Source of the DNA: Blastocatellia bacterium
Lineage (GTDB): Bacteria; Acidobacteriota; Blastocatellia; UBA7656
Length of the DNA: 64,000 nucleotides
NCBI GenBank assembly: GCA_046565505.1
Contig: JBKHYJ010000050.1
Coordinates: 32,415-96,414, forward strand
Direction: 5' to 3'
Every line of letters begins with the position of its first letter. The first letter of the stretch is position 1. The notes beneath the pieces were generated by a model. That model ran no database searches. It had not been told where the DNA came from and saw nothing but the letters and a program-made list of their open reading frames with translations. Made by a program: the position numbers and the translations under genes. This document shows positions 31,936-49,638 of the stretch, in pieces.

Positions 31936-33366
31936 CTATTCAGCACGGAACGAAACTGATGGCGGTACGATCCGTACTGTAGAAAGATTGCTTCTTTGAA
32001 TAAAGAGGGCTTCACTAGCTTGCTTTTCAGCACTTGCTAGGAGTGAAGGGGTTTCGAAGAGCCTTTTGGCTATTTCTTTGACTACCTCAACATGGACGGC
32101 ATTGCCCAAAGCCTTAAATGCTGCTGTGCGTGATTCAGGAAGAATATGATCATCGCTAAAGCCTTGTAACCGTAATGCTTCTATGCGGGTTATAAAACGG
32201 CGTTCTGGTCCTAGTATCGGAATCTGCGTATTCGTCATAGAAACGAGTGTAGGAATTGTCGAGTACCGTTTTACACGTAACCCAGAAGGCCGGAACTGGA
32301 GGACATGATCCCACAAATCCCTTTTCTCACCATTACAATTCCATTCAAATTTTCTGAGTGATAAAGGAAAGGTGCGAAGTTTCGTAATCCATTTCTTGGT
32401 AAAGAAGCGGCGGTGTTTAGTGAGCCATTCGCGGTTCTGCCTTATGAATTGGATTTTCCACTTTGGGAACTTCTCTTCCTTCGACTGAGCATAGCTTGGA
32501 AGCAGTTTGAACAATTGTTCGTGTATGAGATCATGAACATAGTCAGGATGTGCATTTAAGGCCAATTTTAAGGCTCCTGTGGTCATCAGGTAGGGTGTGT
32601 GTTCTTCAAATCTGTATCTAGCATCTAACTCATCACACCATATAGGAAAAGAGGGAAGCTCAACTTCATGAGATATGCGCTTTAGCAACAGATTCCAATG
32701 TTCAATGCATTCCAGTTGCTGTTGAGAGAGTTTTGATTCCTCTCGGTGCATCTTTTTTAATTCGCGCGAGCGCTGGACAATGGTGGCGAGAGTTGTTTCG
32801 CGATAGCGATCAATATCGGGAAAAAGATTTTCAGGAAGTGGTTTGCCACTTCGGGCGACTATATAAAACCTCTCCCTTGTGTGCGGATAGCCTAGATGAT
32901 GCGGTGAAAGCAATCCGTTCCCACCACTGTTAACGTGCTCAGTACCTTTAACACAGTAGTCCAAATTTTCGAGTGCTTGTTTAACTACTTTCCAGGTACG
33001 TCCATTGTCATGCCTTTGAAAGTTACCTACGTTTTCAAGGATTATATACTCAGGCTTGTGCTTTTTCAGAATCTTTATGATTTCATGAAAAAGCGTCCCA
33101 TGTATCTGGTCATCCATACCTTTTTGAGAGCCACTTTTTGAGAAGGGCTGACAGGGAAAACCCGCACATAGGATATCGTGTGCAGGCACTTCATTTCTGT
33201 GCTTACGGATATCACCCACACTCTTGCTCGCCGTGGCAGGAAAGTTCTGACAGTAGAGTTCTCGAAGCTCATCTTGAATTTCTGAAGCGAATACACATTC
33301 GTGGCCGAGTTGGCTTAAAGCAACATGAAAGCCGCCGAGTCCGGCAAAAAGATCAACAAATCTCAT
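31936..33366 (-). CDS. dcm: DNA (cytosine-5)-methyltransferase
   Basis: FAGLGG, GFPCQ, ENV, RER, RLQGF and GNAV; AAGGAGG RBS before ATG 33366. Confidence 0.95.
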   Translation of the reverse strand: MRFVDLFAGLGGFHVALSQLGHECVFASEIQDELRELYCQNFPATASKSVGDIRKHRNEVPAHDILCAGFPCQPFSKSGSQKGMDDQIHGTLFHEIIKILKKHKPEYIILENVGNFQRHDNGRTWKVVKQALENLDYCVKGTEHVNSGGNGLLSPHHLGYPHTRERFYIVARSGKPLPENLFPDIDRYRETTLATIVQRSRELKKMHREESKLSQQQLECIEHWNLLLKRISHEVELPSFPIWCDELDARYRFEEHTPYLMTTGALKLALNAHPDYVHDLIHEQLFKLLPSYAQSKEEKFPKWKIQFIRQNREWLTKHRRFFTKKWITKLRTFPLSLRKFEWNCNGEKRDLWDHVLQFRPSGLRVKRYSTIPTLVSMTNTQIPILGPERRFITRIEALRLQGFSDDHILPESRTAAFKALGNAVHVEVVKEIAKRLFETPSLLASAEKQASEALFIQRSNLSTVRIVPPSVSFRAE

Positions 33367-33388
33367 ACTCCTCCTTAGGCTTTCCGTT

Positions 33389-33862
33389 TCAACTTGTAAG
33401 TGCCTTGTTTTTATGTCGGCGAGCGTCAACCGCACTCTTTATTAAAGCAGCCGCAGCCTCTGGGTCTCGGAGAATATCGGTTTCCCAGAGACGAATAACA
33501 TGCCAGCCAGCTTCTTGCAACCTGGATGTATTTCGTATGTCGCGCTCAATGTTACTTGCTATCTTGGCAGACCAATATGTTGCGTTTGTACCTTGCTCAA
33601 GCTTAGACTTGAGCGTCTGCCATTTGCGACCGTGCCAAAAGTCACCATCGCAAAATACAACTACCCGCACGCCTGAAAAGACAATGTCTGGTTTTCCTGG
33701 TAAAGTCTCTACATTCTTTCTAAATCGAAGGCCAAGCCGCCATAGTTCGCGCCGCAGTAATACTTCATGTTTAGTATCGCGCCGCCGATTACTACGCTTG
33801 ACCTGGGAACTCGCAGCCGATGCAGGCTTAAATCCAGTGAAGGAGGGGACCTTCCTTGCCAT
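33389..33862 (-). CDS. vsr: Very short patch repair endonuclease
   Basis: DTKHE, LPGKPDI, DGDFWHG and IRLWE motifs; adjacent to the C5 methyltransferase. Confidence 0.95.
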   Translation of the reverse strand: MARKVPSFTGFKPASAASSQVKRSNRRRDTKHEVLLRRELWRLGLRFRKNVETLPGKPDIVFSGVRVVVFCDGDFWHGRKWQTLKSKLEQGTNATYWSAKIASNIERDIRNTSRLQEAGWHVIRLWETDILRDPEAAAALIKSAVDARRHKNKALTS

Positions 33863-34203
33863 TCCTAACCCTGTGTGAGTCTCATCACGGGGCAAAGTGT
33901 ATAATGATTATTGGAAGTTGCCAAGATATTTCAGCAAGTTTAGATGTCCTTCTTAAACAACCCTGTCCCAATTCTGATTTAAGGACGGGGGAGAACTAGT
34001 AGTTGTGCATTTGTTGGATAAGTTAACGGGCAATCATGTACGGACTGAAAACGGACTCAGTAATAGATGAGTCGAATCTCCCGGTGGCCTTAGACTGTGC
34101 TTTTGAGGGGCGTCTCACCATGAAGCGCGCATGATAGACTTATAGAAAGAGCAGCAAAGCAAATTTTTCACGTTTTTCCCGCAGTCGCGCCCTTGCTGAA
34201 TTC

Positions 34204-38957: not shown

Positions 38958-39106
38958 TTTGTAGTAATGTGAAATATTTTGGTTTATAATGAGGCTAATT
39001 AGTAAAGGAGTCTACAAGTATGATTGGTGTAGCAGCAATAGATACTAGCTCAAATGGCGCAGATTATTTGTCCAATTCAGACGGGTATGTTACGGTTGCG
39101 CTCGAT

Positions 39107-39385
39107 ATGGCTAAAGTGAACGTGTCGCTGCGCATCCGTGAGCTTGCTGAGCCTGTGGGCATCAATAATCCTTACGAGTTGGCTAAGAGGACGGGCATGC
39201 CTTATGAGTCTTGTCGCTTGATATGGAGTGAAAAGACTCGCCGTATTGATCTTGGCACTATCGAGAAGCTGTGCGAAGTATTTGGCGTGATTCCAGGGCA
39301 ACTTTTTAAGTATGAGTCTGAGTCTGACGCATCAAGCGAATCAACTGAAAAGGCAAAAAAGAGTGGCAGCAGGCGGAAGGAATAG
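39107..39385 (+). CDS. Cro/C1-type HTH repressor
   Basis: ELAKRTGMPYESCRLIW...IDLGTIEKLCEVFGVIPGQLF; divergent from the early operon. Confidence 0.87.
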   Translation: MAKVNVSLRIRELAEPVGINNPYELAKRTGMPYESCRLIWSEKTRRIDLGTIEKLCEVFGVIPGQLFKYESESDASSESTEKAKKSGSRRKE

Positions 39386-39392
39386 GAGTGTT

Positions 39393-39634
39393 GTGATAAC
39401 TGGACTGCCAGAGTATCGCCCGCCTATTGAACAGAGCTTGCGCTGTGTGTGCGGCCAAAGATTCGTTGTGTATCTTGGCGCACCATTCCCTTTTAATGAA
39501 CAAGCATTTGAAGCAGCGCGTGAGCGTGCACAGCAGATGGGCGCTCGATTCATAGACGCACGCTCAACGCCTGGCTTATCTGCTCTTGTGGCGAGGTCTT
39601 GATGTTTGTTGAGGATGCGGCGGCTGTGATGTAG
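39393..39634 (+). pseudogene. Small Cys-rich (CVC...CSC) gene with a 1-bp deletion near 39570
   Basis: AGGAG plus GTG start; restoring one C, as in the copy at 42527-42604, gives TPWLICSCGEVLMFVEDAAAVM*. Confidence 0.6.
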
Positions 39635-39717
39635 AGTTCGCGATAAGGTTAGGAATGATGACACAGGTGGACAACCATATTACTTTCCTGCCGCTTTAGT
39701 CGTGTAATGTTGAGGAG

Positions 39718-40047
39718 TCACCATAGTAGTTCTGAGGCCAAAGGGCCTTCACCCTGTAAGACATCTCCAACTTTTAAATCCGAAGGATGTCCTCTTCCGG
39801 CTTTCCGAAGCATAAGCTCAAATAACATCCTTCTGTATTCGAGTGCATCTTCAATGCACCATTGAGGGTTCTTTACAAGATCATGGATTATACGCAGAAG
39901 CGTCAATGAAAAGTAATACTCAAGGTTCTCTATGAGGTGGTGAAGATATGATACTGGCTCTCCGGCATGGAAAAGTAGATTTCTAGTTCTGTATATGCGA
40001 CGTACTTGAAATTCCGCTCTCTTTTTCGATTCTTCTAGTTGCTTCAC
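39718..40047 (-). pseudogene. C-terminal fragment of an Apea-like HEPN protein
   Basis: RIYRTRNLLFH R-x4-H motif; in-frame stop about 15 codons upstream. Confidence 0.6.
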
Positions 40048-40133
40048 CAGTTCAAGGCGCTTCTTTGCTTCCTGGATAAGACTACATCTTCAAGTAAGGT
40101 CCTCCCTTTCAGATTATGTCTTCCACGGTTGAA

Positions 40134-41315
40134 TTATTCTGGCACCTTTGGGCTTACTTTCCTTCCATCTTCTGTTCTCAAGTGCTCGCTGATTGTATCT
40201 TTTAGTTGGAATCTAAGGTCTTCCAGATTTTCAGGAGTATACATAATGGTACGTATATCTCTAATATCAAATGGAAGTGGGCTGTTATCTGCTGATAGTT
40301 GAATGACTGGTTTATTAAGCACATGGGCCAATCCTAGTTCGTAGAATACATTCGGATTCATTCCCGTCAAGTCAGCCACTACAAGACGGGCATACCGAAT
40401 ATCGTTAAATATCTGATTCATAATCCTGCCGGTTAACTTTACCTCATCAGCTCGAACAGGAATCAGTCCGTTATCGTATATGGCATCTTTTATTGCTATG
40501 TTCCACACATCTGGTCTAACAATCTCTGAACTGAAGGGCATAACAACAAAAACATAGTCTTCTTCGTATCGAGGAGCATGAGTGAGCTTAAAATAATCAA
40601 ACTCTGCAACAGTGAGAGGAATAGCTTTTCTCATGATCCCAAAATAGCCTTTATGTTGATCGTCAAAGATTGAAGAGGTCGTAACATCTACTGGCACCCT
40701 CTGACCATTCGAGTGGAGGCGCACTGTGTTGTAGCGGCAGTGTGATCTAGGCTTGGCTCTGAGTTCTCCTAGAATTTCATCAACCTCTTTACATAAATCA
40801 TCTGGCACCAAGAATTTTCTAATGTCTCTTCCACGTACCTCTTCTCGGTTGAACCCAAAGAGCTTTTCTGCCCCAGCGTTCCATAATACTACTCGACCTG
40901 ATGGATCGAGTATTCCGATTGCGTCCCAGGTAAGCTCAACAAACTTAGAGAAGTTAATCCACTCCCTTTCCTCCCTTAACGCCTCCGTTGCACGATTTAC
41001 TATCCTATAGAACCAAATGGCAGAAAAAAGGACTAATCCTTTGATTGATGTGACGAACCAAGGATGTCGCAAAAACTCTTCCAGAGGTTTGTGAACGACA
41101 CGCGCAATATTTACGATGGCCCAATATATCGAATCTATAACGAGGGTGGTAGCAACAATCCGAAAGGCCTTCTGAATTTGAGAATAACTTGTTGAGTCAA
41201 TAATTGGTTTCCGAGCTTTCAGCACCTCCCCAGTTCTGCTCCATACGACGAGCCAAAACACAACAAGTAGAATATAAACAATAATCTGGGCATATTCAGC
41301 AATAGTATATGACAT
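40134..41315 (-). CDS. Three TM helices + PAS + nucleoside 2-deoxyribosyltransferase-like (TIR/NDT) domain
   Basis: PAS DAI..LD..G....WNAGAEKLFG; FVVMPF, RAD, ADLTGMNPNVFYELG and LPFD motifs. Confidence 0.85.
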   Translation of the reverse strand: MSYTIAEYAQIIVYILLVVFWLVVWSRTGEVLKARKPIIDSTSYSQIQKAFRIVATTLVIDSIYWAIVNIARVVHKPLEEFLRHPWFVTSIKGLVLFSAIWFYRIVNRATEALREEREWINFSKFVELTWDAIGILDPSGRVVLWNAGAEKLFGFNREEVRGRDIRKFLVPDDLCKEVDEILGELRAKPRSHCRYNTVRLHSNGQRVPVDVTTSSIFDDQHKGYFGIMRKAIPLTVAEFDYFKLTHAPRYEEDYVFVVMPFSSEIVRPDVWNIAIKDAIYDNGLIPVRADEVKLTGRIMNQIFNDIRYARLVVADLTGMNPNVFYELGLAHVLNKPVIQLSADNSPLPFDIRDIRTIMYTPENLEDLRFQLKDTISEHLRTEDGRKVSPKVPE

Positions 41316-41394
41316 TCAGGATTTACTCTCCTTTTTCGAACATCAGTAATTTATGCGAAGCGGAGGGAGTTGATGAATCTACTAATACTCTTAA

Positions 41395-42033
41395 CTAAGG
41401 CTTGTGCAACCCTTTTTGTATAATGAATTCGCGACCTTTACCCACATCAATATTAATGGGCACTCCTTTATTGCATAGTGGGCAACCGTCTTCATCCCAA
41501 GTATCTAATGAAAGCTCAAGGAGGCTACATAGCTTTGGTGGATTGCCAACTTGATCAATGGTAACGTCGCCACGATTGCATAGAGCAGCAGCTCCTATTA
41601 CTATTCCACCATTGATACGAACAGCCTGGATCACCTCTTTAAGCGACGCACCTGTAGTTAGTACATCCTCAACAATGAGTACTCGTTTATCTTTAAGTAG
41701 TTGATCATAACCTCGACGAAAGATGAAGGATCCTTGCTCTCCTTTTTCAGCGTAAATAGCAAGTACAATATGGCCTTTCGTCGATAAGTGATAAGCAACC
41801 CATTGTGAAAGTATCACACCACCGATTGCTGGTGCCGCCACGATTTCTATCGCATCTTTAGTAAATTGCGCTGCAATTTCTTGGCAGAGTGAGGAAACCG
41901 CACGCGTATTGGGATAGATTGCATCTTTATTAATATACGTACTCCCATGCTTGCCTGATGTATATACAACATGTGTATCTCTGATTATGGCTTTATGTTG
42001 TTCTAAAACTCTTACTGCGTCTATATTTTTCAT
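41395..42033 (-). CDS. pyrE: Orotate PRTase-like protein (island copy)
   Basis: HVVYTSGKHGSTY, PAIGG, FRRGY, VEDVLTTGAS and CPLC. Confidence 0.8.
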   Translation of the reverse strand: MKNIDAVRVLEQHKAIIRDTHVVYTSGKHGSTYINKDAIYPNTRAVSSLCQEIAAQFTKDAIEIVAAPAIGGVILSQWVAYHLSTKGHIVLAIYAEKGEQGSFIFRRGYDQLLKDKRVLIVEDVLTTGASLKEVIQAVRINGGIVIGAAALCNRGDVTIDQVGNPPKLCSLLELSLDTWDEDGCPLCNKGVPINIDVGKGREFIIQKGLHKP

Positions 42034-42526
42034 ATTTCGTCCCTTTGAAACATTAATCTAGTTGACTATCAGAGTTATTTATTGGCCATTTCCTTAAATT
42101 ACCGTTAGGGATGACAAACCCTGAACGGTTACCTACAGATAGTTATAAATAGATTTATCCAACACCAGATTGTTCGTTAGGTGCGTTGACTGTAATGCTC
42201 AGCACCCCTTTTGTCAATTGAAACGCTTGGCCAGTAAGAGAATGTATTTATTAGGCCAGGATAGCGAAACACTCTGGCTGCCTTGCCCTAAATTCACTGC
42301 TATATAAGGAGTATTACTTATAAAAAGCAGGTTAGTATCTACTTTTCGGCATATTATAATCTGTTATAGTACAGTTGTTTTTAGCAAATCGCTCAAATAT
42401 GGTTTAAATGACTCTGTATAAGCAACAGAGTTAGACGCCACCTAACAAGCAGAGGCAGCGGAGCAATCGCCAATTGCGAATAGTAACAATTATACCCACA
42501 CCAAAAGCTGTTAGCCGCCCATCGAG

Positions 42527-42604
42527 CGCCCAACGCCCTGGCTTATATGCTCTTGTGATGTGACACTGATGTTTGTCGAGGAGGCGACGGCTGTGGTGAT
42601 GTAA
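42527..42604 (+). repeat. Diverged copy of 39561-39634 (3' end of the small Cys gene)
   Basis: Translates as RPTPWLICSCDVTLMFVEEATAVVM* versus RST-WLICSCGEVLMFVEDAAAVM*. Confidence 0.85.
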
Positions 42605-42629
42605 ATCTAGTCACCAGTTTAGTTTGAGC

Positions 42630-42735
42630 TTGACAGGAAATCTCTTTAGAGTATTATTAGGAGCTAAAGCTCCTAAAAGACCTAAAAGTTTTCATGGTCT
42701 TAAAGGTCTCATAGGAGTTTAAAGAGTTCTAGGCG
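42630..42735 (+). promoter_or_regulatory. Sigma70 promoter followed by a 9-bp periodic repeat array
   Basis: TTGACA-16-TATTAT, then CTAAAGCTC CTAAAAGAC CTAAAAGTT TTCATGGTC TTAAAGGTC TCATAGGAG TTTAAAGAG. Confidence 0.65.
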
Positions 42736-42807
42736 CTAGCGCTGTCGAAGTTTTTGGGGTGAGTACCGGGCTTCTTACACTAGTTGATAGCAGAGGAGGG
42801 TTGACGG

Positions 42808-43056
42808 TTGAAAGGGTCGAGAGGAAATGACAAAGTGGTAACAGCCAAAGACTTAGCCAAAGCCGCAAATGAACCATATAACACAATTGATTTTTGGACC
42901 GGAGAGGACTTATTAGTGTATACAAGAAAGGGTAGGAAACGCTTCTATCCCTTAGAGGTAAACCTGGAAAGGTGTAGTCGCATACGCGAATTACAAAATG
43001 AGGGCTATTCTCTCCCAAGCATCCGTAAAGAATTCTCTCGAAAAGGTGGGATATAA
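42808..43056 (+). CDS. Small MerR/Xis-like winged HTH protein
   Basis: TAKDLAK...TIDFWT..LL...RFY...IRELQNEGYSL; GGAGG RBS with TTG start. Confidence 0.8.
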   Translation: MKGSRGNDKVVTAKDLAKAANEPYNTIDFWTGEDLLVYTRKGRKRFYPLEVNLERCSRIRELQNEGYSLPSIRKEFSRKGGI

Positions 43057-43082
43057 TAAGTACAGGAATTGCTGATTAGAAG

Positions 43083-43556
43083 TTGTCATGTACTAAAGGA
43101 AAGCATAGAATGCAGCGCACGAATCACATAAACAATGTTACAGGTACGCGGGATATGAAAAGCCTTATGGCGACATGGGTTAGGCAAGCGAGCCAAGAAA
43201 TGAGTGCTGATACAGCATCGAGACTTATTCCTTTGAGACCACTCAAGCGACTGCAAAGAAGGCTAGAGAATTCTGTTAGTTCATCTATTGATAAGGAAGA
43301 TTTATATCTGGTTTTCTTTCTATCAGCTTTCATTCAAGATATTTTTTACAATTTAGCGGGTGAGGTTCCTTACTCTGAAAAAGTTGAGCAAGAAAAGCAA
43401 AAGATTTATAGCGAACTCATTCAAATCCTCTCTCAATTGGCAAATGCGCTAGAAAAAGGAAATTTTGAAGAAGAAAAGCTAGCCTGTGCTGACATGGTGT
43501 ACACCTATTTGAGTGGTGTAAAATTTATTGATTCAGCTTTAAAGGAGGAAGGCTAA
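43083..43556 (+). CDS. Hypothetical helical protein (start uncertain)
   Basis: ORF within the operon; TAATG overlap with the next gene. Confidence 0.65.
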   Translation: MSCTKGKHRMQRTNHINNVTGTRDMKSLMATWVRQASQEMSADTASRLIPLRPLKRLQRRLENSVSSSIDKEDLYLVFFLSAFIQDIFYNLAGEVPYSEKVEQEKQKIYSELIQILSQLANALEKGNFEEEKLACADMVYTYLSGVKFIDSALKEEG

Positions 43557-44251
43557 TGCAAGAAGAAAGATTCGTTCTTTTCGATGCTACAGTTGAAGAA
43601 GAACGCGCCCTGTTTTCAGAGTTTGCGCGCGCTTGCTTAAAGAATAGCCGCTATGACTTTGTTGGTGGGGGATCAGGTGGCAATTATGTGGACATAGATG
43701 AGTATGCTGCTGGAAGAGATTCAGATGATGTTTACAAAAGCGAAGAAGCCTTTAAGAGAGCAGAGCAGCTTGGTCGTTTCATTGCAAGCAAGATCAAGCT
43801 TTTGAAAGATAGTGGCATCGAAATAGATCGACTTGCTTTCATTGAGAGAGACAGTGGTCCTGTTGGAATGATAACTTACAAAGATTTCTTAGGAACAATT
43901 ACTAAATTGGAAACTTGCTCAATACGTCCCCGTAAAAGGCTTTTGGCATCTGCCGTAAAAGGACGCCCCTTACGGCAGCACGAAAAAGTCGTATTAATAA
44001 ATGATGTTGCAACTGATGGTGATGCCATCCTATCTGCCGCCGATAAGATTTGGCAACAGGGAGGAGTTGTTGCCTTTGCAATAGTTATGTTCGATAGGTG
44101 TGAAGGTGCTAGGGAGCATTTAGCGCAGTACGATATTGAGCTATATTCAATCTTTGATAAAGACAGCCTTATCAAAGAGGGTCACATTGAGAAAGACTCT
44201 AAACCGAACAACAATGTAGTGCAGTTCATTGGTGTGGCTACAACTCGGTAA
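43556..44251 (+). CDS. Divergent type I phosphoribosyltransferase (OPRT-like)
   Basis: PRPP loop VLINDVATDGDAI and FDRCEGA; AGGAGG RBS. Confidence 0.82.
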   Translation: MQEERFVLFDATVEEERALFSEFARACLKNSRYDFVGGGSGGNYVDIDEYAAGRDSDDVYKSEEAFKRAEQLGRFIASKIKLLKDSGIEIDRLAFIERDSGPVGMITYKDFLGTITKLETCSIRPRKRLLASAVKGRPLRQHEKVVLINDVATDGDAILSAADKIWQQGGVVAFAIVMFDRCEGAREHLAQYDIELYSIFDKDSLIKEGHIEKDSKPNNNVVQFIGVATTR

Positions 44252-44312
44252 TAATTAGACTATCCCTTCTAAGTGCGTATAGTTTCCCGTTAGTCTCCTT
44301 ATCAGGATAACT

Positions 44313-46049
44313 ATGACTGGGTCTGCCCCTACAATGCATATTCAGATTAGCGTCTTTGATCGAGTAATTGTTGCGCAAGACTTCGCTGCTCAAATTATCC
44401 GAACATACACGTTTGTAAATGTTGTAGACTCCGAAATCATTATTGACTGGACGCGTAAAGAAGAGTTTGACCCGCCCGTTAGGAATTTTCAATGTAGTAA
44501 TCCATCATCAGAGGTTCAAATTCTTCCGTTTCAAGGCGAAGAAACAGGAGAAGTGTCATGGATACTAGGTCCTCGTGCCTTACAGCCCGGTGATCAAATT
44601 ACTGTACAATTCTCTTTTGAACGCCACGAATTGTTTAAGGTATTGCCTCCATTGATCGGAACCTTTGAATATAGCTCTCTAGAACACGTGATATACTCTG
44701 TTGAGGTCATACCAGAACTTTCATGTTTATTTGAGTATTCGGAAATCCAAATCATACCAGATCCCATGGACGTAGGGAAATCCTCTTTTGTAGTCACTCA
44801 GGATGGCAGGCTCGTATCTGCTCCTAGAAGGCTTTCGGCCAATCGAGGTGGGGAATTCTCACTTCGGGTAACATCAAGCCCGCCCAGAATAGAAACGCTA
44901 CCTTTAATTCAAATTTTAGCAAACGAAGCAAAAAACTCAGGGATCTCCATTGCTGACCTAACTCTGATTATAGTTCCACATCTATTAACAGATTTTCTCT
45001 CGTTTGCAGATGCATTAGAAGCAATTGGTGTAAACCCTGAACGCACATTTATTGTGGGGATCCCCTACTCTTTAAAGCAGCATGTAGTTCTACATTTACT
45101 ACATCGCGGGTATAAATCTATTTGGGCGCCAACAGATTATCCCTTTATAGATAAAATTGATGAGGCGATTCAGGCTGCCGCGGCATCAGTAAAGTCTAAT
45201 GGTGGCCGGATTTTGATTATTGAAGATGGTGGTTATATTGTTCCAAGACTTCATACCCATTATCCTGAACTGATTGACTATGTAATAGGTGCTGTGGAAC
45301 AAACTGCTAATGGGATTTGGGCTTATCGAACTATTCTGTCTGAAAATAGAAGGATAAGAACAGTGAATGTGGCGGAATGCGACCTAAAGAAGAGAAGAGA
45401 AAGCCCACTCATCGGTGATGCGGTTTTCATGAATGTGAGTCGTCTTTTAGAGAAAGTACAATTAGGTCTTCGAGATAAACGAGTACTCATAGTAGGGTAT
45501 GGAGCAACAGGCTCTCGCGTAGCGGAAGTCTTTAGTAAGAATGGAGCCAAAGTTACGGTAATTGATAATAAGGAAGACAGGCGCGAAAAGGCTAAGCAAG
45601 ATAGCTATGACGTGGCGGATAATCTTGAGACTGCTATTAAGGGAAAGTTCCTTATCGTAGGATGCACAGGAGAAGAGATCATCGGAATGAATGCTTTACT
45701 AAGCGCAGATCATCAAACATATTTCGTTAATGCCTCTTCAAAACGGTTAGAAGTAAACCATAGAGATTTGCTTAACATCACAAGAGAAACAGAGCTTCTG
45801 CCTGGGTTTGGAACGAAGTACCATTTAATAAACGGGCGAGATATAACCATACTAGCGAACGGATTTCCTGTTAATTTTCATGGTAAGGCCGAGAGTGTTC
45901 CAGATAAAGAGCTTCAATTTATCTATGGTCTTTTGTTAGATAGTGCAGTTTATCTTGTAAAGACGCCAGATCTACCTGTTGGTATTATTGATGTACCAAA
46001 TGAAAATCAGGAACACATAGAAGAACTACATAACCATCTGCTTCCTTAG
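44313..46049 (+). CDS. Beta-rich N-terminal domain fused to an S-adenosylhomocysteine hydrolase-like NAD-binding enzyme
   Basis: PHLL, IEDGG, GAVEQTANG, VNVAECDLK, GYGATG and LANGFPVNF match the SAHH motifs in order. Confidence 0.8.
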   Translation: MTGSAPTMHIQISVFDRVIVAQDFAAQIIRTYTFVNVVDSEIIIDWTRKEEFDPPVRNFQCSNPSSEVQILPFQGEETGEVSWILGPRALQPGDQITVQFSFERHELFKVLPPLIGTFEYSSLEHVIYSVEVIPELSCLFEYSEIQIIPDPMDVGKSSFVVTQDGRLVSAPRRLSANRGGEFSLRVTSSPPRIETLPLIQILANEAKNSGISIADLTLIIVPHLLTDFLSFADALEAIGVNPERTFIVGIPYSLKQHVVLHLLHRGYKSIWAPTDYPFIDKIDEAIQAAAASVKSNGGRILIIEDGGYIVPRLHTHYPELIDYVIGAVEQTANGIWAYRTILSENRRIRTVNVAECDLKKRRESPLIGDAVFMNVSRLLEKVQLGLRDKRVLIVGYGATGSRVAEVFSKNGAKVTVIDNKEDRREKAKQDSYDVADNLETAIKGKFLIVGCTGEEIIGMNALLSADHQTYFVNASSKRLEVNHRDLLNITRETELLPGFGTKYHLINGRDITILANGFPVNFHGKAESVPDKELQFIYGLLLDSAVYLVKTPDLPVGIIDVPNENQEHIEELHNHLLP

Positions 46050-46063
46050 CAGAGATTCAAAGT

Positions 46064-47029
46064 ATGATTAAAACGGCTAATGAAATGTTTGCGGATAGAC
46101 TACTGAATGCTGTAGATAAGAAGCAGAGTAATGTAGTTGTCGGATTAGATCCTGACACTCAAAGGTTACCTAGGTTTTTGCTGGATAAGCACATGACCCT
46201 TCATGGCATGGGGTTGAAAGGATTTGCTTCTGCTGTTGCCGATTTTAACACCCAAATTATAGATGCAATACAAGACATCGCCGTAGCTGTAAAACCTCAA
46301 ATAGCATTCTACGAGGCATTAGGCATTCATGGACTTGAGGCATTAAGAAAAACTATTCGCTATGCACACTCGCGAGACTTGCTTGTTATTCAAGATGCCA
46401 AACGTGGAGATATTGGATCAACAGCCGAAGCATATGCTATTGCTCACATTGGCTTGCTTCCAATTAACAAACGAAAGAAAGTATCTATATTTGGGGCGGA
46501 TGCGGTTACTGTCAATCCTTTATTGGGTTCGGACAGCATAGAGCCATTCATAAAAAGAACTGAAAACAATGGCAGAGGAATCTTTGTTCTTGTGAAAACA
46601 TCCAATCCTTCTTCAAGTGAGCTACAGGATTTAGAAACCACATACAACGGTAAGCGTTGTCGGGTTTATGAAGTTATTGCTGAACTCGTTAATAGATGGG
46701 GTGAAAAATCTATGGGGAATCGAGGATACTCATCCGTAGGCGCTGTGGTTGGGGCTACATTTCCGGAACAAGCAAAGTTACTACGGGAACTTATGCCTCA
46801 GGTGATCTTTTTGGTCCCGGGCTATGGTGCTCAAGGTGCAAAGGTTAAAGATATTGTCGATTGCTTTAACAAAGATGGATACGGCGCAGTAATTAGTTCT
46901 TCGCGTGAGATTATATACGCATACCAGAAACTTTCAGTTAGTAACGACCTGGCAGAAAAGAACTTCGCTGAGGCCGCGCGCGAATCTGCATGTAAAATGC
47001 GCGATGGAATTCGATCTGCTCTTGCATGA
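46064..47029 (+). CDS. pyrF: Orotidine-5'-phosphate decarboxylase
   Basis: VGLDP, KPQIAFYE, DAKRGDIGST, KTSNP, GAVVGAT, PGYGAQG and SSR. Confidence 0.95.
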   Translation: MIKTANEMFADRLLNAVDKKQSNVVVGLDPDTQRLPRFLLDKHMTLHGMGLKGFASAVADFNTQIIDAIQDIAVAVKPQIAFYEALGIHGLEALRKTIRYAHSRDLLVIQDAKRGDIGSTAEAYAIAHIGLLPINKRKKVSIFGADAVTVNPLLGSDSIEPFIKRTENNGRGIFVLVKTSNPSSSELQDLETTYNGKRCRVYEVIAELVNRWGEKSMGNRGYSSVGAVVGATFPEQAKLLRELMPQVIFLVPGYGAQGAKVKDIVDCFNKDGYGAVISSSREIIYAYQKLSVSNDLAEKNFAEAARESACKMRDGIRSALA

Positions 47030-47105
47030 TTTCTTTCAGATCAAACCAATATTGCGAGATACAGCAAACATCGAGTCTAAGACTCGATAACTTTCCTGCA
47101 AGAAG

Positions 47106-47129
47106 CTGACAGCAGCCCTGACAGCAGCC
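47106..47129 (+). repeat. Putative integrase arm-binding sites, right
   Basis: CTGACAGCAGCC twice in tandem. Confidence 0.75.
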
Positions 47130-47220
47130 AGGATAAAAAGGAGTAACACGCAATGGACAAGGCGGCACTCAAGTTGTTGATTTATAGACACTGCAACACG
47201 TAGTGATACGCCTGCCTCGA

Positions 47221-47268
47221 AGTGGCACTCAAGAGGTCGTCGGTTCGAGCCCGACTAGCTCCACTTTA
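47221..47268 (+). repeat. att repeat, right (displaced 3' half of tRNA-Ala)
   Basis: 47/48 match to 20668-20715; the mismatch is in the T-loop (TTCGAGC versus TTCGATC). Confidence 0.95.
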
Positions 47269-47319
47269 GAATCAACCAGATACGGGCAGCCTTCGGGTTG
47301 CCTTTTCTATTTTGTGTGC

Positions 47320-47862
47320 CTATTGTGTGCCAACTTTCTTAAAGAGCATTGCTTCGAGCTTATGCGTAGAAGCCTTCTGCATTGATGGCAGAATGTGAGA
47401 GTAAACATCCATAGTCATTCTGATACTGGCATGACCTAAGCGTTCCGCAACCACCTTTGGGTTTTCATTTGCAGCTAGAAGTAAGGTTGCACAAGAATGT
47501 CTTAGATAATACAGCCTCAGTGACTCGGATAATCCAGCACGCTTGAGAATTGGCTTGAAGTGACGACGAACAATGTCTCGCTGCAATATAGGTCTCCCCA
47601 CACCTGTAGCGAAGACCAGATCATGGTCTTGATACTTCGGTCCCGCCTTTAACCTCTCTTCTAATTGCCTGCGCTTGTATTCAACAACGCTATAAACTAA
47701 CGAGCCAGGTATGGTGATGCTTCGCCTGCTTCTAGGTGTCTTAGGCTCGGTGAAGGACCAGCCGATTTTACTCCTCCAGATAACTACCCGCTGGACTGTG
47801 ACAATACCGTTCTGAAAATCAATACCTTTCCACTGTTTCCTGAGAGCCTTAGCACTTTTCAC
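47320..47862 (-). pseudogene. C-terminal remnant of a second tyrosine integrase
   Basis: PKT, LRHS, LGH and VYSH present, N-terminal half missing; own tandem TTGTGTGCC repeats at 47312-47331. Confidence 0.85.
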
Positions 47863-48086
47863 GTTGGGGACTCTCAGGGGGCGCAGAAAATAAAAACCCT
47901 ATGATTCAATGTCCACTACACGGTTGGCAAAAAGCCAACAAGCATATGGAGGAGAGAATCTTGATATGTGAGAAGTGTGACCAGGAGAACGAGTGGGCTC
48001 AGGGGACATAAAAATCCCTATAGGCCAGCCAACTGTATTGCCATATGAAAACAAACCTAAAACTTATCTACCGCGCAGGCGGAGAG

Positions 48087-48329
48087 TCACTGCTGGCACT
48101 GAATACAAGAAGTGCCGCAGGATTGAATGCATTGGTTAAATGCCCCGCAGCAGATCTCGTACGGGTTGTTATTCAAACACTCGTTGAATTGGTTGTTACA
48201 ACTGCGCAAGCAAAAACTATTGCAAGCGCGCGCCTCAGAGTGGCCCATACTGGAAAGTACAAGGAAGCCAACCATCAGCACTAGGGTGAGCAACCTAATT
48301 GTGAGATTTCGCGTACGGCACCTCCTCAA
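48087..48329 (-). CDS. Secreted Cys-rich peptide 1
   Basis: Signal peptide ending ARA; 10 Cys in the mature part with Cx3Cx6C...Cx6Cx3C. Confidence 0.62.
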   Translation of the reverse strand: MRRCRTRNLTIRLLTLVLMVGFLVLSSMGHSEARACNSFCLRSCNNQFNECLNNNPYEICCGAFNQCIQSCGTSCIQCQQ

Positions 48330-48490
48330 TGCGATATGTCGATTAACGATTAATGTAGTCCTAAATTCTAACCGTGTAAAGCAAATTTAGGTGATTGACA
48401 TTACATGAAGGCGAGGGGTAGATTGCGCCCCTTAAAAAAGGAAACCGGGCATAATGCGCGGTTTCCTGCTGTTTGAATGGTAGTCTTAAC

Positions 48491-48721
48491 TTAGAAGGGG
48501 TATGAGTAGGGGCAGCCTCTGGCACAGTTAAAATACGCCGACTCGCAATCAGTACTGTTACCTCCACTATCGATACACTCGACATACGGGCACCAGCATT
48601 TATCACAACAGGGTGGAAGCGAAGAGCAACTTGCGCTCGTTGCAGAGCCCGAGAATGTTGCTGGAACGAGCAACATTAAAAGCACGCTCGGCACTATCCA
48701 CAGAGTTATACAGTTATCCAC
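48491..48721 (-). CDS. Secreted Cys-rich peptide 2 (5' end possibly damaged)
   Basis: Hydrophobic leader and the same Cx3Cx6C...Cx6Cx3C pattern. Confidence 0.55.
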   Translation of the reverse strand: MDNCITLWIVPSVLLMLLVPATFSGSATSASCSSLPPCCDKCWCPYVECIDSGGNSTDCESAYFNCARGCPYSYPF

Positions 48722-48755
48722 AGAGACAAATTCACCAATTTGCTATACTGAAGAT

Positions 48756-49151
48756 ACAAAAGAATACCGTCTAATGACGGGGCGCTATAAGGAAGCAGAA
48801 GACCGTTAAGGTGCTTCCACCGAGCAAGAAAGTCCGAAAGGATTAGTAAGGTTCGGGGTAGCGCCTCAGCGGTTTTCTTTTGCTAAACAACCATCAGAGG
48901 CTCTTGGTAGCTCCTCGTAAGGAAATGATTCTCTTTTGGGGGAAAAGTTTACAGCTGGGATATGTCTAAATTGCTCCGATAGGGCATATTCTTCCCCCAC
49001 AAGAGAGTCATTTACCTAAATCAGAAGCTCCCCCTATTGAGAGCCATCGCCTATCTTCGCGCTAATAACCTCCTGACCTCAGATGACGTTTTGGAGAAGC
49101 TTGTCACCATAACGTCGCCGGCCCGGAAGTGAGAACTTCCGGGCCGGCTTT
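48756..49151 (+). ncRNA. Candidate ~400-nt structured RNA, family unknown
   Basis: Extended -10 TGCTATACT (48741-48749), long G:U-containing stems (48797-48878; 48920-49017), terminal 14-bp GAGA-loop hairpin (49117-49148). Confidence 0.5.
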
Positions 49152-49171
49152 AAGTGCAAGTAATTAAAAGG

Positions 49172-49244
49172 TGACTCGTACGGGATTTGAACCCGTGTTA
49201 CCGCCGTGAAAGGGCGGTGTCCTAGGCCCCTAGACGAACGAGTC
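49172..49244 (-). tRNA. tRNA-Glu(TTC)
   Basis: GACTCGT/ACGAGTC acceptor, CCGCC-CTTTCAC-GGCGG anticodon arm, GGTTCAAATCC T-arm. Confidence 0.96.
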
Positions 49245-49313
49245 AAAACAGAAGGATGAAGGCGAAGGGTAAATCACCTTGAGGGAGTCAATCTCATTTT
49301 TCATCCTCACAGA

Positions 49314-49357
49314 GTGAGCCGCGGAGGAGCCAGACTCCCGACACGCTGGTTAAAAGC
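49314..49357 (-). pseudogene. Decayed 3' half of tRNA-Lys(TTT)
   Basis: Minus strand CTTTTAA-CCAGC...TCCTCC-GCGGCTC-AC; T-loop eroded and 5' half absent. Confidence 0.6.
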
Positions 49358-49638
49358 TAACAGCGGGTCCACGGCGAAAGGTAATCATAAACAAACTCAT
49401 AATATTTTTGCAAGGAAGGAGCACGCACAAGCTCAGAGTTGTCTACTTCCTGCTTTCTAAACATTGTCTAAACTGATTTGCATTTTAAGTTACTGATCAG
49501 TCAGTAAGGAACCAGCAGCACGAAGCCCACTCCAATGATTCATGGCGCGAGAAAGTAGTTACCTATAGGACTCGCGATTATGTCTGAAGTTTTAGGACCC
49601 GGCCGCAGGCCGCGCCTGACGCAAAGGGAAAATATCCC

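Follow-up and report, generated by a model that had tools for sequence, protein, structure and literature searches.

In the 64,000-nt window (the whole stretch of DNA analyzed), a low-GC element of 26.6 kb is integrated at tRNA-Ala; its last cargo is a set of five genes encoding a MerR-type protein, a helical protein, an OPRT-like PRTase, a protein resembling SAH hydrolase (SAHH) and a type-2 OMP decarboxylase (OMPDC; PyrF). We tentatively propose, with slightly less than even confidence, that this operon is a mobile, self-supplied pathway to a sugar-modified pyrimidine nucleos(t)ide, made by AgmF-like ribose editing and serving as an antimetabolite in conflict. The proposal draws on the conservation of the genes as a unit, the active site of the SAHH-like enzyme, links to nucleoside monophosphates, the AgmF precedent, the conflict context and the additional OMPDCs and cupins of related loci. 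No description of the cassette was found in the literature searched.

Genomic island and operon organization

GC content is 0.40 to 0.42 at the operon versus ~0.60 in the flanks, and the 3′ part of tRNA-Ala is present as a 94-nt direct repeat (20668–20761 and 47221–47314; 77% identical, with one base difference in the first 48 nt). Both features bear out the first-pass annotation of the operon as cargo of an integrated element. Genes for an MkoA-like helicase, a C5 methylase and Vsr lie in this element too. All five co-oriented ORFs proposed at 42808–47029 are present on the plus strand (Table 1). A host pyrE had also been placed outside the island; with 100 bits (cut-off, 150), the OPRT-like gene in question (13202–13816) is not confirmed as pyrE, and the argument that relied on it is weak.

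The small MerR-family helix-turn-helix protein is the probable regulator. Of the clear promoter claimed upstream, the site itself stands, whereas promoter-like sites are not enriched (10 versus 11.4 expected from shuffles), and the call is therefore based on position and quality. The adjoining palindrome, TTAGGAGCT-aa-AGCTCCTAA, is a putative operator; imperfect repeats with similar half-sites occur at locus L001, and the pattern has no exact copies across 67 loci. The fold of the 152-nt leader RNA is not unusual (z = −0.56), and the leader has no Rfam match.

Table 1. Features of the operon and its island, in window coordinates
Feature	Position	Strand	Basis or remark
tRNA-Ala	20638–20711
σ70-like promoter, TTGACA-16-TATTAT	42630–42657	+	11/12 matches; best site within 41900–47400
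Perfect 9+9 palindrome, TTAGGAGCT-aa-AGCTCCTAA	42657–42676		Abuts −10 box
MerR-type HTH ORF, 82 aa	42808–43056	+	MerR_1 (Pfam), 2e-9
Helical protein ORF, 157 aa from TTG	43083–43556	+	ORF call
OPRT-like PRTase ORF, 231 aa	43556–44251	+	pyrE TIGR00336, 1.2e-13
Beta-domain and SAHH-like ORF, 578 aa	44313–46049	+	AdoHcyase_NAD, 9.7e-9
N-terminal beta-rich domain, ~residues 1–190	44313–44882	+	Outside SAHH alignment
SAHH-fold NAD-binding catalytic core, ~residues 191–578	44883–46049	+	PDB SAHH matches
Type-2 PyrF ORF, 321 aa	46064–47029	+	pyrF_sub2 TIGR02127, 291 bits
Right-end direct repeat, attR-like partial tRNA-Ala copy	47221–47314	+	Closes island
Terminator-like hairpin	47284–47303		Inside right-end repeat

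The SAHH-like protein

The family profile aligns to SAHH only from profile position 187, and the extra N-terminal beta domain described previously is thus confirmed. Neither the window protein nor any of 10 cassette homologues has a Pfam match in this domain. Its Atlas model (residues 3–190) is similar to beta-sandwich domains, among them the N-domain of DUF2207 (TM 0.61 to 0.72 by query), and the initial proposal that it acts as a sensor is not supported. The window sequence by itself matches SAHH in the PDB at 5e-12, and the family profile matches a whole archaeal SAHH (7r37 residues 47–417; E = 3e-39).

The altered catalytic motifs noted at first are real: EQT replaces EET, and K359-x3-E363-S replaces K186-x3-D190-N. 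K359, E363, D305 and H223 are equivalent to K186, D190, D131 and H55 of SAHH, respectively. The residues E304-D305-G306-G307, E329-Q330-T331, K359, E363, the three glycines of GxGxxG (G395, G397 and G400), N521 and F522 are invariant in 56 of 56 family members, and D418 is found in 50. The claim that the catalytic His, Asp, Lys and NAD loop are all kept holds for His55, Asp, Lys and the NAD loop but not for His353, replaced by Val or Ile, or for the hydrolytic His301, whose equivalent is an invariant serine (Ser476, 56/56) followed by K477 (49/56) and R478 (35/56). Scores against the ahcY models are 85.6 and 71.2 bits, far below cut-offs of 275 and 497.6; together with the lost histidine, they agree with the earlier view that the protein is no ordinary SAH hydrolase. 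Invariance of the catalytic Lys, the acid, DGG and the NAD site in all 56 distant members argues for catalysis, and the protein looks active, yet not as a hydrolase of SAH.

The helical protein, PRTase and PyrF

No cassette protein matches a PADLOC defense model, and the 157-aa helical protein likewise has no Pfam or NCBIfam match. An alternative ATG at 43110 would shorten it to 148 aa; its Atlas record begins at residue 10 and is modeled as a helical bundle, and the only PDB matches to its profile are designed helical bundles. Its homologues lie immediately 5′ of the PRTase gene in nine loci and share the motif FIDDIFxNLxGDxPY; N90 and Y142 do not vary among them. In the window, its stop codon overlaps the PRTase start.

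The PRTase is divergent, as the first reading had it: it reaches 51 bits with pyrE TIGR00336, whose cut-off is 106.8, and its PRPP loop (N-D-V-A-T-D-G) is altered. It has no Pfam match at E ≤ 0.01, a word-indexed search returned only eight non-self relatives, and the top PDB matches to a profile of 10 cassette PRTases are OPRTases (2yzk, 1e-17; human UMPS, 2e-15). Ten of 11 cassette PRTases have a different residue in place of the first acidic one of the loop, and enzymes so altered may be slow or use another substrate. PyrF is indeed intact (291 bits against the TIGR02127 cut-off of 110.6), with the KPQ lysine and DAKRGD motif present. It shares 64 to 72% identity with nine metagenomic proteins, four of them on contigs equal in length to those of SAHH-like hits, and 50 to 55% with ordinary type-2 PyrFs. 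All catalytic motifs are kept; the initial suggestion of an unusual nucleotide is, as regards the base, not supported. With no sign of altered specificity in its sequence, PyrF would fit plain UMP supply and, equally, a plain metabolic role.

Conservation and coinheritance of the cassette

Conservation of gene order, an early expectation for this operon, extends across phyla: among 65 family loci drawn from 185,579 species genomes, the order helical protein-PRTase-SAHH-like-PyrF recurs in nine, representing at least seven phyla. Individually, the PRTase occurs in 10 loci, type-2 PyrF in nine, the helical protein in nine and a MerR homologue, ahead of the cassette, in six; order and strand are constant at every locus carrying these genes. 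Trees of the SAHH-like protein, PRTase and PyrF recover the pairs (window, L001), (L002, L003) and (L004, L012) with support of 98 to 100, except that the PRTase tree leaves the first pair unresolved and the PyrF tree gives the last 92. Because the three trees agree, the cassette moves as a unit. L002 and L003, sisters in every tree, belong to Actinomycetota and Planctomycetota; judged by these trees, PyrF coevolves with its cassette neighbors and not with host phyla, in keeping with the first-pass view that it is no vertically inherited copy. Ten of 11 cassette SAHH-like cores fall in one 12-row clade (support 97). The nine labeled cassette rows of the 126-row PyrF tree, in which genomic context is known for a minority of the others, require seven changes and so do not form one clade.

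Locus L025 has a PRTase, an OMPDC paralogue and a cupin beside an SAHH-like protein of another clade and is, by clade membership, a second, independent association of PRTase, OMPDC and SAHH-like protein. Fuller versions of the cassette contain one to three extra OMPDC paralogues (7 of 10 loci), mostly keeping DxKxxD, and a metal-site cupin (HxHx3EE...H) is encoded at four of 10 cassette loci and six other SAHH-like loci. These additions are consistent with further steps on a keto-sugar nucleotide.

Genomic context of the wider family

At E ≤ 1e-30, the SAHH-like family comprises 1,844 representative clusters. Fusions in 56 long representatives involve SAVED (four), cytidine/dCMP-deaminase (three), ORC-CDC6-like (two), CHAT, AlbA_2 plus TPR, GGDEF and PRTase-CE (one each) domains, and NUDIX is fused at four of the 56 N termini. 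A c4 gene is paired with the SAHH-like gene within type I restriction-modification (R-M) operons at L018, L023 and L027. Gabija genes (GajA/GajB) and a NucC-like gene adjoin the cassette at L005, Drt4 (6e-179) and PD-T4-2 A/B adjoin L025, and a SIR2-like gene and PDC-S39 adjoin L001; integrases, transposases or recombinases occur at L001, L005 and L012. The defense company initially suspected is therefore seen for both the cassette and the wider family, including immune sensor domains, as raw occurrences. Housekeeping genes flank three of the 10 cassette loci (L004, L006 and L015), and the flanking ORFs tested at L012 and L015 gave no PADLOC matches.

The NUDIX, deaminase and PRTase-CE fusions link the family to nucleoside monophosphates, as do the neighbors of several relatives. 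Four PRTase genes lie beside the SAHH-like gene at L021, and two Streptomyces plasmids carry a GNAT/SAHH-like/methyltransferase/PRTase/HAD operon. Lactiplantibacillus accounts for 39 of 58 matching plasmid records; L. plantarum plasmids encode MFS, phosphohydrolase and SAHH-like proteins, and on a Simkania plasmid SDR and EamA transporter genes are next to the relative. Such adjoining exporters (MFS and EamA) point to secreted products. In their respective clades, methyltransferase (eight loci), radical-SAM (four loci) and type I R-M neighbors could instead reflect an involvement with SAM by-products. Between L054 and L060, two TM6 relatives, synteny is conserved, as for a vertically inherited gene.

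Proposed pathway and alternative functions

The enzymatic steps, substrate, product and biological role that we infer are as follows. The OPRT-like PRTase would couple PRPP with orotate or a closely related carboxylated compound, and the type-2 OMPDC would make this step irreversible, giving a UMP-type nucleotide. The SAHH-fold enzyme, through tightly bound NAD, would transiently oxidize the ribose 3′-OH and activate C4′ (or C2′). The activated sugar could then lose its 5′ leaving group to give a 4′,5′-didehydro-5′-deoxy nucleoside, as in AgmF, or be epimerized, and the cofactor would reduce C3′ again at the end of the cycle. The product would be an antimetabolite in biological conflict; the context suggests an antiviral role, most likely against phages inside the cell, and an analogy is offered by viperin, which pairs with a partner kinase, CMPK2. 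The MerR-type protein would repress the operon at the promoter-adjacent palindrome, and the helical protein and N-terminal beta domain may be regulatory or scaffolding parts.

AgmF, an antibiotic-pathway enzyme homologous to SAHH, does not cleave SAH; its bound NAD, which it recycles itself, serves to dehydrate a nucleoside, and its cluster also encodes a PRTase and a phosphatase (PMC8599513). It serves as a precedent for the window enzyme.

The same chemistry might instead yield a secreted nucleoside antibiotic or signal against other microbes, which we consider unlikely. The exporter-linked L. plantarum and Simkania relatives favor it, as do actinobacterial operons (GNAT, methyltransferase, PRTase, HAD and radical SAM) that resemble nucleoside natural-product clusters and the antibiotic pathway in which AgmF acts. 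The extra OMPDCs, up to four genes in one operon at L012 and two paralogues with hydrophobic C-terminal tails, would then serve as substrate supply or inhibitor-resistant self-protection. A duplicated housekeeping target within a biosynthetic cluster is a mark of self-resistance. However, no transporter gene lies inside the operon of the window cassette or 10 relatives, Gabija, DRT4 and PD-T4-2 are direct neighbors, and the SAVED, CHAT and ORC-like fusions and type I R-M placement are marks of intracellular immunity.

An improbable alternative is an abortive-infection drain, in which PRTase and PyrF, once switched on, would draw PRPP and orotate into UMP, to be destroyed irreversibly by the SAHH-like enzyme, by phosphate elimination or glycosidic-bond cleavage via a 3′-keto intermediate, so that PRPP or pyrimidines are depleted and the phage is starved. 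The Ser-Lys-Arg in place of His301 could hold the leaving phosphate. The domain fused to SAVED, found four times here, is normally a cell-arresting effector. OPRT plus OMPDC is, however, the normal productive UMP route and not itself toxic, there is no toxin-antitoxin signature or obvious trigger, and the conserved cupin and extra OMPDCs suggest multistep synthesis over destruction. In its favor, defense systems are known to include PRTase toxins that upset nucleotide metabolism, as reported for ShosT (PMC11961720).

It is quite improbable that the operon encodes accessory metabolism that mobile DNA merely happens to carry, a back-up for the final two steps toward UMP plus a divergent hydrolase of SAH or another adenosyl by-product. 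Such a role would suit PyrF, with its score above the curated equivalog cut-off and its likeness to housekeeping copies, the housekeeping flanks of three cassette loci, the TM6 synteny and the methyltransferase, radical-SAM and type I R-M neighbors, all SAM users. It does not suit an SAHH-like protein that misses the ahcY cut-offs 3- to 7-fold and whose family has lost the hydrolytic His throughout, a PRTase below its pyrE cut-off with an altered PRPP loop, or a rare cassette (10 of the 65 family loci) that has moved between phyla as a whole, its gene trees in agreement, brings a dedicated regulator and an uncharacterized protein and has a GC content of 0.41 within a 0.60 genome.

That the SAHH-like protein is a noncatalytic nucleotide sensor controlling PRTase, PyrF or an unseen effector, in the manner of the animal AHCY-like IRBIT proteins, is hardly credible: the extra N-terminal domain, variable fusions and weak Pfam and NCBIfam matches would allow it, but the catalytic residues and complete NAD site are invariant, and a SAVED fusion would have no need of a second sensor.

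Architecture and putative control region of the operon

The five open reading frames proposed in the first-pass annotation are real, co-oriented and tightly packed, and together form an operon of 4.4 kb, hereafter the cassette, in which a homologue of S-adenosyl-L-homocysteine hydrolase (AhcY; SAHH) lies between a phosphoribosyltransferase (PRTase) resembling orotate phosphoribosyltransferase (OPRT; PyrE) and an OMP decarboxylase (OMPDC) of the PyrF family. The sigma-70-like site upstream agrees at 11 of 12 positions, and promoter-like sites in this region show no enrichment (10 found versus 11.4 expected). The palindrome abutting its -10 box is perfect, and its pattern recurs in none of the 67 loci searched. 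The operon leader has no Rfam match and an ordinary fold (z = -0.56), and tRNA-Glu was the only RNA family matched in an Rfam scan of 39000-49500. The 157-aa protein matches no family in the Atlas (best feature score, 0.77); the only relatives recovered in a PDB search were designed helical bundles.

Features of the cassette, the island and their surroundings in the window
Feature	Position	Strand	Description
PRTase of the host part	13202-13816		OPRT-like
tRNA-Ala	20638-20711		next to the split integrase
Direct repeat, left copy	20668-20761		94 nt, 3' part of tRNA-Ala
Integrase next to tRNA-Ala	20787-21167 and 21225-22025		split into two ORFs
Nucleotide genes of the island	25227-27601		dCTP-deaminase-like, thymidylate-synthase-like, cytidine-deaminase-like
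Restriction/defence-like block	27721-33895	-	nuclease-helicase, C5 cytosine methylase, Vsr endonuclease
Nucleotide-related pair	40134-42033	-	divergently transcribed from the cassette
PRTase of the pair	41395-42033		212 aa, OPRT-like
Sigma-70-like site	42630-42657		TTGACA-16-TATTAT
Palindrome	42657-42676		9+9
MerR-type HTH	42808-43056	+	82 aa; Pfam MerR-type match, 2e-9
Protein without known family	43083-43556	+	157 aa; none in Pfam/NCBIfam
OPRT-like PRTase	43556-44251	+	231 aa; start overlaps preceding stop; TIGR00336, 1.2e-13
SAHH-like protein	44313-46049	+	578 aa; Pfam match to SAH-hydrolase NAD domain
Type-2 OMP decarboxylase PyrF	46064-47029	+	321 aa; 291 bits versus cut-off of 110.6
Direct repeat, right copy	47221-47314		94 nt, 3' part of tRNA-Ala
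Second integrase fragment	47320-47862	-	outside right-end repeat, with further low-GC DNA
tRNA-Glu	49170-49244	-	beyond right-end repeat

A divergent SAHH-like protein with its oxidizing residues conserved

As a single sequence, the SAHH-like protein matches SAH hydrolases of the PDB with an E value of 5e-12 over residues 297-573. A profile of 56 relatives aligns with the complete fold of the archaeal SAHH 7r37 (residues 47-417; E = 3e-39) from profile position 187, so that approximately 190 N-terminal residues are extra. In the Atlas model, this segment is similar to beta-sandwich domains (TM, 0.61-0.72); the model and the profile start together confirm the additional beta-rich N-terminal domain described in the first-pass annotation. 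This domain belongs to no recognized family, and Pfam gave no match in the 10 cassette N-terminal domains. The remainder of the protein is predicted from its sequence to possess the two-domain SAHH fold, the NAD-binding GxGxxG loop and the acid for the NAD ribose.

Motifs were counted in columns over the 56 relatives, read with the profile alignment to the archaeal SAHH. The positions and roles assigned to the human residues (K186, D190, D131, H55, His301, His353 and E156) are those that we take to be established. They are consistent with the references quoted in PMC8599513 (32 and 33 for the oxidizing set). The glycines of the NAD loop (G395, G397 and G400) are present in 56/56 relatives and D418 is present in 50/56. 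Equivalents of K186 (K359, 56/56), D131 (D305, 56/56) and H55 (H223, 55/56) are kept, and Asp is replaced by Glu at the D190 position (E363) in all 56; the machinery for 3'-oxidation is therefore retained and, with the fold and the NAD loop, constitutes the likeness to AhcY. The E156 position is an invariant Gln (Q330, 56/56), the N191 position is Ser, the His301 position is Ser (S476, 56/56) followed by Lys in 49/56 and Arg in 35/56, and the His353 position is Val, Ile or Met. With the changes at His301 and His353, the protein has lost residues linked to adding water and contacting adenine. The earlier statement that His, Asp, Lys and the NAD loop are kept thus holds for the equivalents of H55, the Asp, the Lys and the loop but fails for His301, replaced by Ser, and His353, replaced by aliphatic residues.

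The protein also misses both equivalog cut-offs for AhcY (NCBIfam TIGR00936/PRK05476; 85.6 bits versus 275 for NF004005 and 71.2 versus 497.6 for TIGR00936) and, with its His301, His353 and E156 equivalents replaced, is not an ordinary SAH hydrolase, in agreement with the first reading. It differs from AhcY in these scores, in four substitutions (E156Q, N191S, H301S and H353V/I), in the extra N-terminal domain and in context, which is the methyl cycle for AhcY and mobile for the SAHH-like protein.

An intact OMP decarboxylase and an unusual PRTase

PyrF scores 291.4 bits against the TIGR02127 cut-off of 110.6. All intact cassette PyrFs retain the catalytic Lys and DAKRxD, with KPQ and DAKRGD present in the window PyrF and all 8 intact cassette copies. 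Its nearest relatives are nine metagenomic proteins (64-72% identity), followed by a plateau of ordinary type-2 PyrFs at 50-55% identity that includes those of isolate Clostridia. In a FastTree phylogeny of 126 rows (leaving aside the split L001 copy and two rows that duplicate locus sequences), the window PyrF falls in a 10-row clade with a support of 99, and no cassette copy falls inside the isolate-Clostridia or Thermoplasmata clades. The nine labelled cassette rows require seven changes and context was available for a minority of the other rows; therefore, the PyrF tree alone gives no single cassette clade. The split copy in L001, the closest genomic relative (a Blastocatellia MAG), lies in two overlapping ORFs at 11744-12701 of that locus, reflecting a frameshift or an assembly error, and is followed by an IS91-type transposase and an integrase.

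The PRTase falls below the pyrE cut-offs (51.2 bits versus 106.8 for TIGR00336; 19.3 versus 150 for TIGR01367) and has no Pfam Pribosyltran match at an E value of ≤0.01. In OPRTases, a pair of neighbouring acids precedes T/S-G in the PRPP loop. That of the window PRTase reads L-I-N-D-V-A-T-D-G, and the first acid is N, S, G or T in 10 of 11 cassette PRTases, D-D being found in L025 only. OPRTases are nevertheless the best PDB matches to a profile of 10 cassette PRTases (2yzk, 1.1e-17; 2wns, 2.2e-15; 3qw4, 3.8e-15), compared with weaker matches to APRTases (approximately 2.5e-9 and above), and the profile can be aligned with the UMP synthase of Leishmania across positions 25-224. This subfamily is rare, eight non-self matches being recovered. 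The first-pass annotation had placed a host pyrE outside the island, but the OPRT-like gene concerned (13202-13816) scores 100 bits against the pyrE_Therm cut-off of 150 and so is not confirmed as pyrE. This gene is situated in the host part, where GC is high, and encodes a C-terminal CxxC motif, as does the 212-aa PRTase of the island.

Conservation and spread of the cassette

A search of genomes, one for each species, yielded 65 loci encoding SAHH-like relatives, and the window proteins were compared with their 4,544 ORFs by phmmer. The PRTase was found in 10 loci (L001 to L007, L012, L015 and L025), the type-2 PyrF in nine, the 157-aa protein in nine and the MerR-type protein in six. The gene order, which the first-pass annotation had put forward for checking, is conserved and is always protein without known family, PRTase, SAHH-like protein and PyrF on one strand; the contig of L007 begins within the PRTase. 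According to their records, the hosts belong to the Acidobacteriota, Actinomycetota, Planctomycetota, Nitrospirota, Myxococcota, Pseudomonadota and Chloroflexota.

Gene trees built separately for the SAHH-like protein, the PRTase and PyrF share the pairs L002 (Actinomycetota) with L003 (Planctomycetota) (support, 98-100) and L004 with L012 (92-99). The pair of the window and L001 is recovered in the SAHH-like and PyrF trees and left unresolved by the PRTase tree. When 64 SAHH-like cores were placed in one tree, a single 12-row clade (support, 97) took in 10 of the 11 cassette members; the L025 core belongs to a different clade, yet its neighbours include a PRTase together with an OMPDC paralogue and a cupin. 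Partner types follow the SAHH-like clades, with five changes compared with 20.9 in shuffles. The cassette is thus both conserved and mobile.

Seven of the 10 cassette loci encode one to three additional OMPDC paralogues of type-1/archaeal-like sequence, most of which retain DxKxxD, and a cupin of 125 aa whose metal site is complete is found in four of the 10 and in six other loci. The fullest version (L012, 8343-14822) comprises nine genes, four of them of the OMPDC family, with the row protein without known family, PRTase, SAHH-like protein, type-2 PyrF, OMPDC, OMPDC, cupin and OMPDC flanked by an integrase and a MazF toxin. In L012 and in L006 (4568-5428), one OMPDC paralogue each has a hydrophobic C-terminal tail of approximately 50-60 residues. 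The cassette resembles PyrE-PyrF and UMP synthase in combining an OPRT-like gene with an OMP decarboxylase within one operon. It differs in that its PRTase scores under the pyrE cut-offs and shows changes in the PRPP loop, the SAHH-like gene separates the pair, the whole is mobile across phyla and the fuller versions add OMPDC paralogues and the cupin.

The integrated island and its other cargo

The GC content of the window decreases from approximately 0.60 to 0.40-0.50 between approximately 20 and 50 kb. The 3' part of tRNA-Ala is directly repeated, the two copies being 77% identical with a single base difference in the first 48 nt, which makes the operon the final cargo of an integrated element of 26.6 kb. 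Besides the split integrase, the element encodes a Rep_1 replication protein and carries an IS200 transposase. The integrase fragment, low-GC DNA and tRNA-Glu past the right repeat suggest tandem remnants of another element.

The island is unusually rich in pyrimidine-nucleotide enzymes, with three genes at 25227-27601, two PRTases and PyrF. The dCTP-deaminase-like protein (315 aa; TIGR02274, 55 bits versus 92.8) and the cytidine-deaminase-like protein (69 bits versus 74) score below their cut-offs and the thymidylate-synthase-like protein (319 aa) far under its own; none of the three has a PADLOC match. In the restriction/defence-like block, the nuclease-helicase is a 1,395-aa PD-(D/E)XK protein that is MkoA-like (3e-33) and the C5 cytosine methylase is DruM-like (2e-86).

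The PRTase of the divergent pair scores 128 bits against the pyrE_Therm cut-off of 150 and has a weak PADLOC match to ShosT (E = 0.0013). Its 393-aa partner combines hydrophobic segments at the N terminus with a PAS domain and, at the C terminus, a TIR/nucleoside-2-deoxyribosyltransferase-like domain, matching the CBASS "Effector TIR" model of PADLOC at 6e-11 and Pfam Nuc_deoxyrib_tr at 2e-4, under the cut-off. By phmmer, the cassette is not joined by this pair in the other loci: the PRTase matched only L021 and, weakly, L005, and the PAS protein gave one weak match. The pair may be a separate defence-like system.

Defence genes near the cassette

Pfam was applied to 125 cassette-flanking ORFs and PADLOC to 67, omitting clear housekeeping ORFs and all flanks of L004 and L006. 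Taken as raw counts, defence-like neighbours comprise 3/9 flanking ORFs in L005 (GajA/GajB directly downstream and a NucC-like gene upstream), 3/7 in L025 (Drt4, 6e-179, and PD-T4-2 A/B directly upstream) and 3/11 in L001 (a SIR2-like gene, a restriction-like ATPase and PDC-S39). HerA-like and E1-like matches account for 2/18 ORFs in L002 and 1/11 in L003, and PADLOC matched none of the flanking ORFs in L012 (0/6) or L015 (0/5). Integrases, a transposase or a recombinase occur in L001, L005 and L012, and housekeeping genes flank the cassette in L004, L006 and L015. In PADLOC-DB 2.0, no cassette protein matches a defence model, and the PRTase, 157-aa protein and PyrF have no matches; the hits are limited to mad1 for the HTH protein (E = 0.009) and to E1-E2 for the SAHH-like protein, confined to the Rossmann loop (approximately residues 385-419).

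Partners and fusions in the wider SAHH-like family

The family profile matches 6,033 representative proteins at an E value of ≤1e-3, 3,568 at ≤1e-10 and 1,844 at ≤1e-30, with lengths from 283 to 1,745 aa. Among 56 long representatives picked from the 150 matches listed, 14 have an extra Pfam domain: SAVED (four), cytidine/dCMP deaminase (three), ORC-CDC6-like (two) and one each of PRTase-CE, GGDEF, CHAT, Schlafen-AlbA_2 with TPR and S1 repeats. SAVED is present in 2/56 of another set of relatives, and neither Pfam nor the Atlas model indicates a SAVED domain in the window protein. Among 56 N termini from the genome loci, four have NUDIX, one has HNH and GGDEF and one is ORC-CDC6-like.

Partner genes are similarly varied. 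A 335-aa protein without known family lies beside the SAHH-like gene in nine loci, three of them inside type I restriction-modification operons, and a 720-aa protein with an HExxH motif lies upstream of it in four (L014, L040, L058 and L059). The latter has no match in Pfam, NCBIfam or PADLOC, and its invariant T-H-E-x-x-H resembles a zinc-peptidase motif. A methyltransferase is found beside the gene in eight actinobacterial loci, and a radical-SAM enzyme, weakly MoaA/viperin-like (MoaA, 5e-10; viperin, 1.6e-6), in four. Comparison of c4 and c9, partner proteins of other SAHH-like clades, with the PRTase and the 157-aa protein by hhalign gave nothing (E = 0.36-0.61), and they are therefore not hidden PRTases. 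Streptomyces sp. HK10 carries three near-identical 909-aa SAHH-like genes with the same set of neighbours on three contigs (L050, L053 and L055).

Proposed function and relation to characterized systems

Links to PRTases occur in three independent SAHH-like clades, and links to NUDIX proteins, HAD or HD phosphatases or deaminases in others; all of these partners make or consume nucleoside 5'-monophosphates. The SAHH-like enzyme most likely acts on a nucleoside 5'-monophosphate or its nucleoside. By analogy with AgmF, the PRTase and OMPDC would make a UMP-type nucleotide, from which the SAHH-like enzyme would eliminate a 5' leaving group, or whose sugar it would epimerize, via a 3'-keto intermediate, and the Ser-Lys-Arg replacing His301 could hold a phosphate.

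AgmF of angustmycin biosynthesis is a SAHH homologue of ordinary length, 34% identical to the Mycobacterium tuberculosis enzyme, that removes water across C5'-C6' of a nucleoside while recycling its own NAD; its cluster also has a PRTase and a phosphatase, and its activity needs His56, His299, Lys and Asp equivalents (PMC8599513). The likeness would lie in a SAHH fold that does not cleave SAH, in bound and recycled NAD and in a PRTase-made nucleoside sugar as the target. The fold, PRTase partner and His56 equivalent are present in the window, and the His299 equivalent is Ser. No phosphatase is encoded in the window operon, and HAD or HD phosphatases are found in other SAHH-like clades. The window protein differs from AgmF in being far more divergent (5e-12 to PDB SAHHs), in its 190-aa beta domain, in having pyrimidine partners (OPRT-like and OMPDC) instead of adenine and allulose enzymes and in lying outside a Streptomyces antibiotic cluster. 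Herbicidin Her4 is reportedly another precedent. Synthesis of an ara-nucleotide, as in the pentostatin/Ara-A cluster, is a lead only; the part of the PenF paper available names no SAHH-like partner (PMC11592144). Oxidation of dihydro-OMP by the SAHH-like enzyme was rejected by reasoning, since this desaturation needs flavin and does not suit the fold.

Regarding biological role, the fusions to SAVED, CHAT and ORC-like domains, the embedding in restriction-modification operons and the defence neighbours favour a role in immunity. A secreted antibiotic may instead be the product, as exporters and natural-product-like operons accompany other SAHH-like clades, and some clades may salvage by-products, having SAM-using neighbours. 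PRTase-based defence toxins include ShosT of ShosTA (PMC11961720) and the PRTase effectors of type III-A3 retrons, which share with the cassette a PRTase-fold protein, a defence-island setting and a link to nucleotide metabolism. The cassette PRTase differs from these in having OMPDC and SAHH-like partners and in the absence of a PADLOC match, a DprA-like antitoxin or a reverse transcriptase.

Prokaryotic viperins, with co-encoded nucleotide kinases, produce antiviral ddh-nucleotides by radical-SAM chemistry at C4' and are encoded in defence islands. Under the immune role favoured here, the cassette would resemble them in editing the ribose of a pyrimidine nucleotide to yield an antimetabolite, in its adjacent substrate-supply genes and in its occurrence in defence islands; it would differ in using NAD-mediated 3'-oxidation, and the sequences are unrelated. 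It is conceivable, although we consider it rather doubtful, that SAHH-fold ribose editors acting by transient NAD 3'-oxidation make up a sizeable and so far undescribed group of immune enzymes in prokaryotes, sensor-fused or self-supplied, and a redox counterpart of viperin generating a new natural pyrimidine nucleoside analogue. In such a class, editors would be deployed either behind SAVED, CHAT, ORC/Cdc6-like or GGDEF sensor domains or, as in the window, in a self-supplied "antimetabolite factory", where the editor would receive its substrate from a dedicated OPRT-like PRTase and between one and four OMP decarboxylases. The literature searched describes neither a SAHH-like/PRTase/OMPDC system nor SAHH-like immune effectors, one part of this absence, covering the top 15 of 1,038 ranked papers, being weak, and none appears in the accessible portions of two comparative-genomics preprints.

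If correct, the proposed nucleotide editing would represent a second, chemically distinct bacterial and archaeal route from ordinary nucleotides to antiviral or antibiotic analogues, with bound-NAD redox chemistry on the sugar in place of radical-SAM chemistry. The products could be new nucleoside analogues, the class behind many antiviral and anticancer drugs, and the family, with 1,844 representative clusters at an E value of ≤1e-30, is large and unstudied. The presence of up to four OMP decarboxylases per operon on a mobile element is a puzzle.

Plasmid-borne relatives

Relatives were found on 58 plasmids, and 39 of the 58 records matching the window protein are from Lactiplantibacillus; a phage collection gave one weak, unannotated match only. 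Two Streptomyces linear plasmids carry the row GNAT, SAHH-like protein, methyltransferase, PRTase and HAD, and one Streptomyces plasmid operon adjoins TIGR02679/TIGR02680 genes, which we take to be Wadjet components. On a Simkania plasmid, an SDR and an EamA transporter adjoin the SAHH-like gene, and lone copies occur on conjugative plasmids of Agrobacterium (near an integrase) and Legionella (among toxin-antitoxin genes). The 4.4-kb operon permits direct testing, and the plasmid relatives of Lactiplantibacillus plantarum, a harmless species, offer a culturable handle on a related branch. Plasmids of this species carry an operon of an MFS transporter, a phosphohydrolase and a SAHH-like protein; in L067 (conjugative plasmid NZ_CP017376.1, 4876-8068), the phosphohydrolase is PRK10119-like (1.4e-23) and the SAHH-like protein is divergent and 384 aa long.
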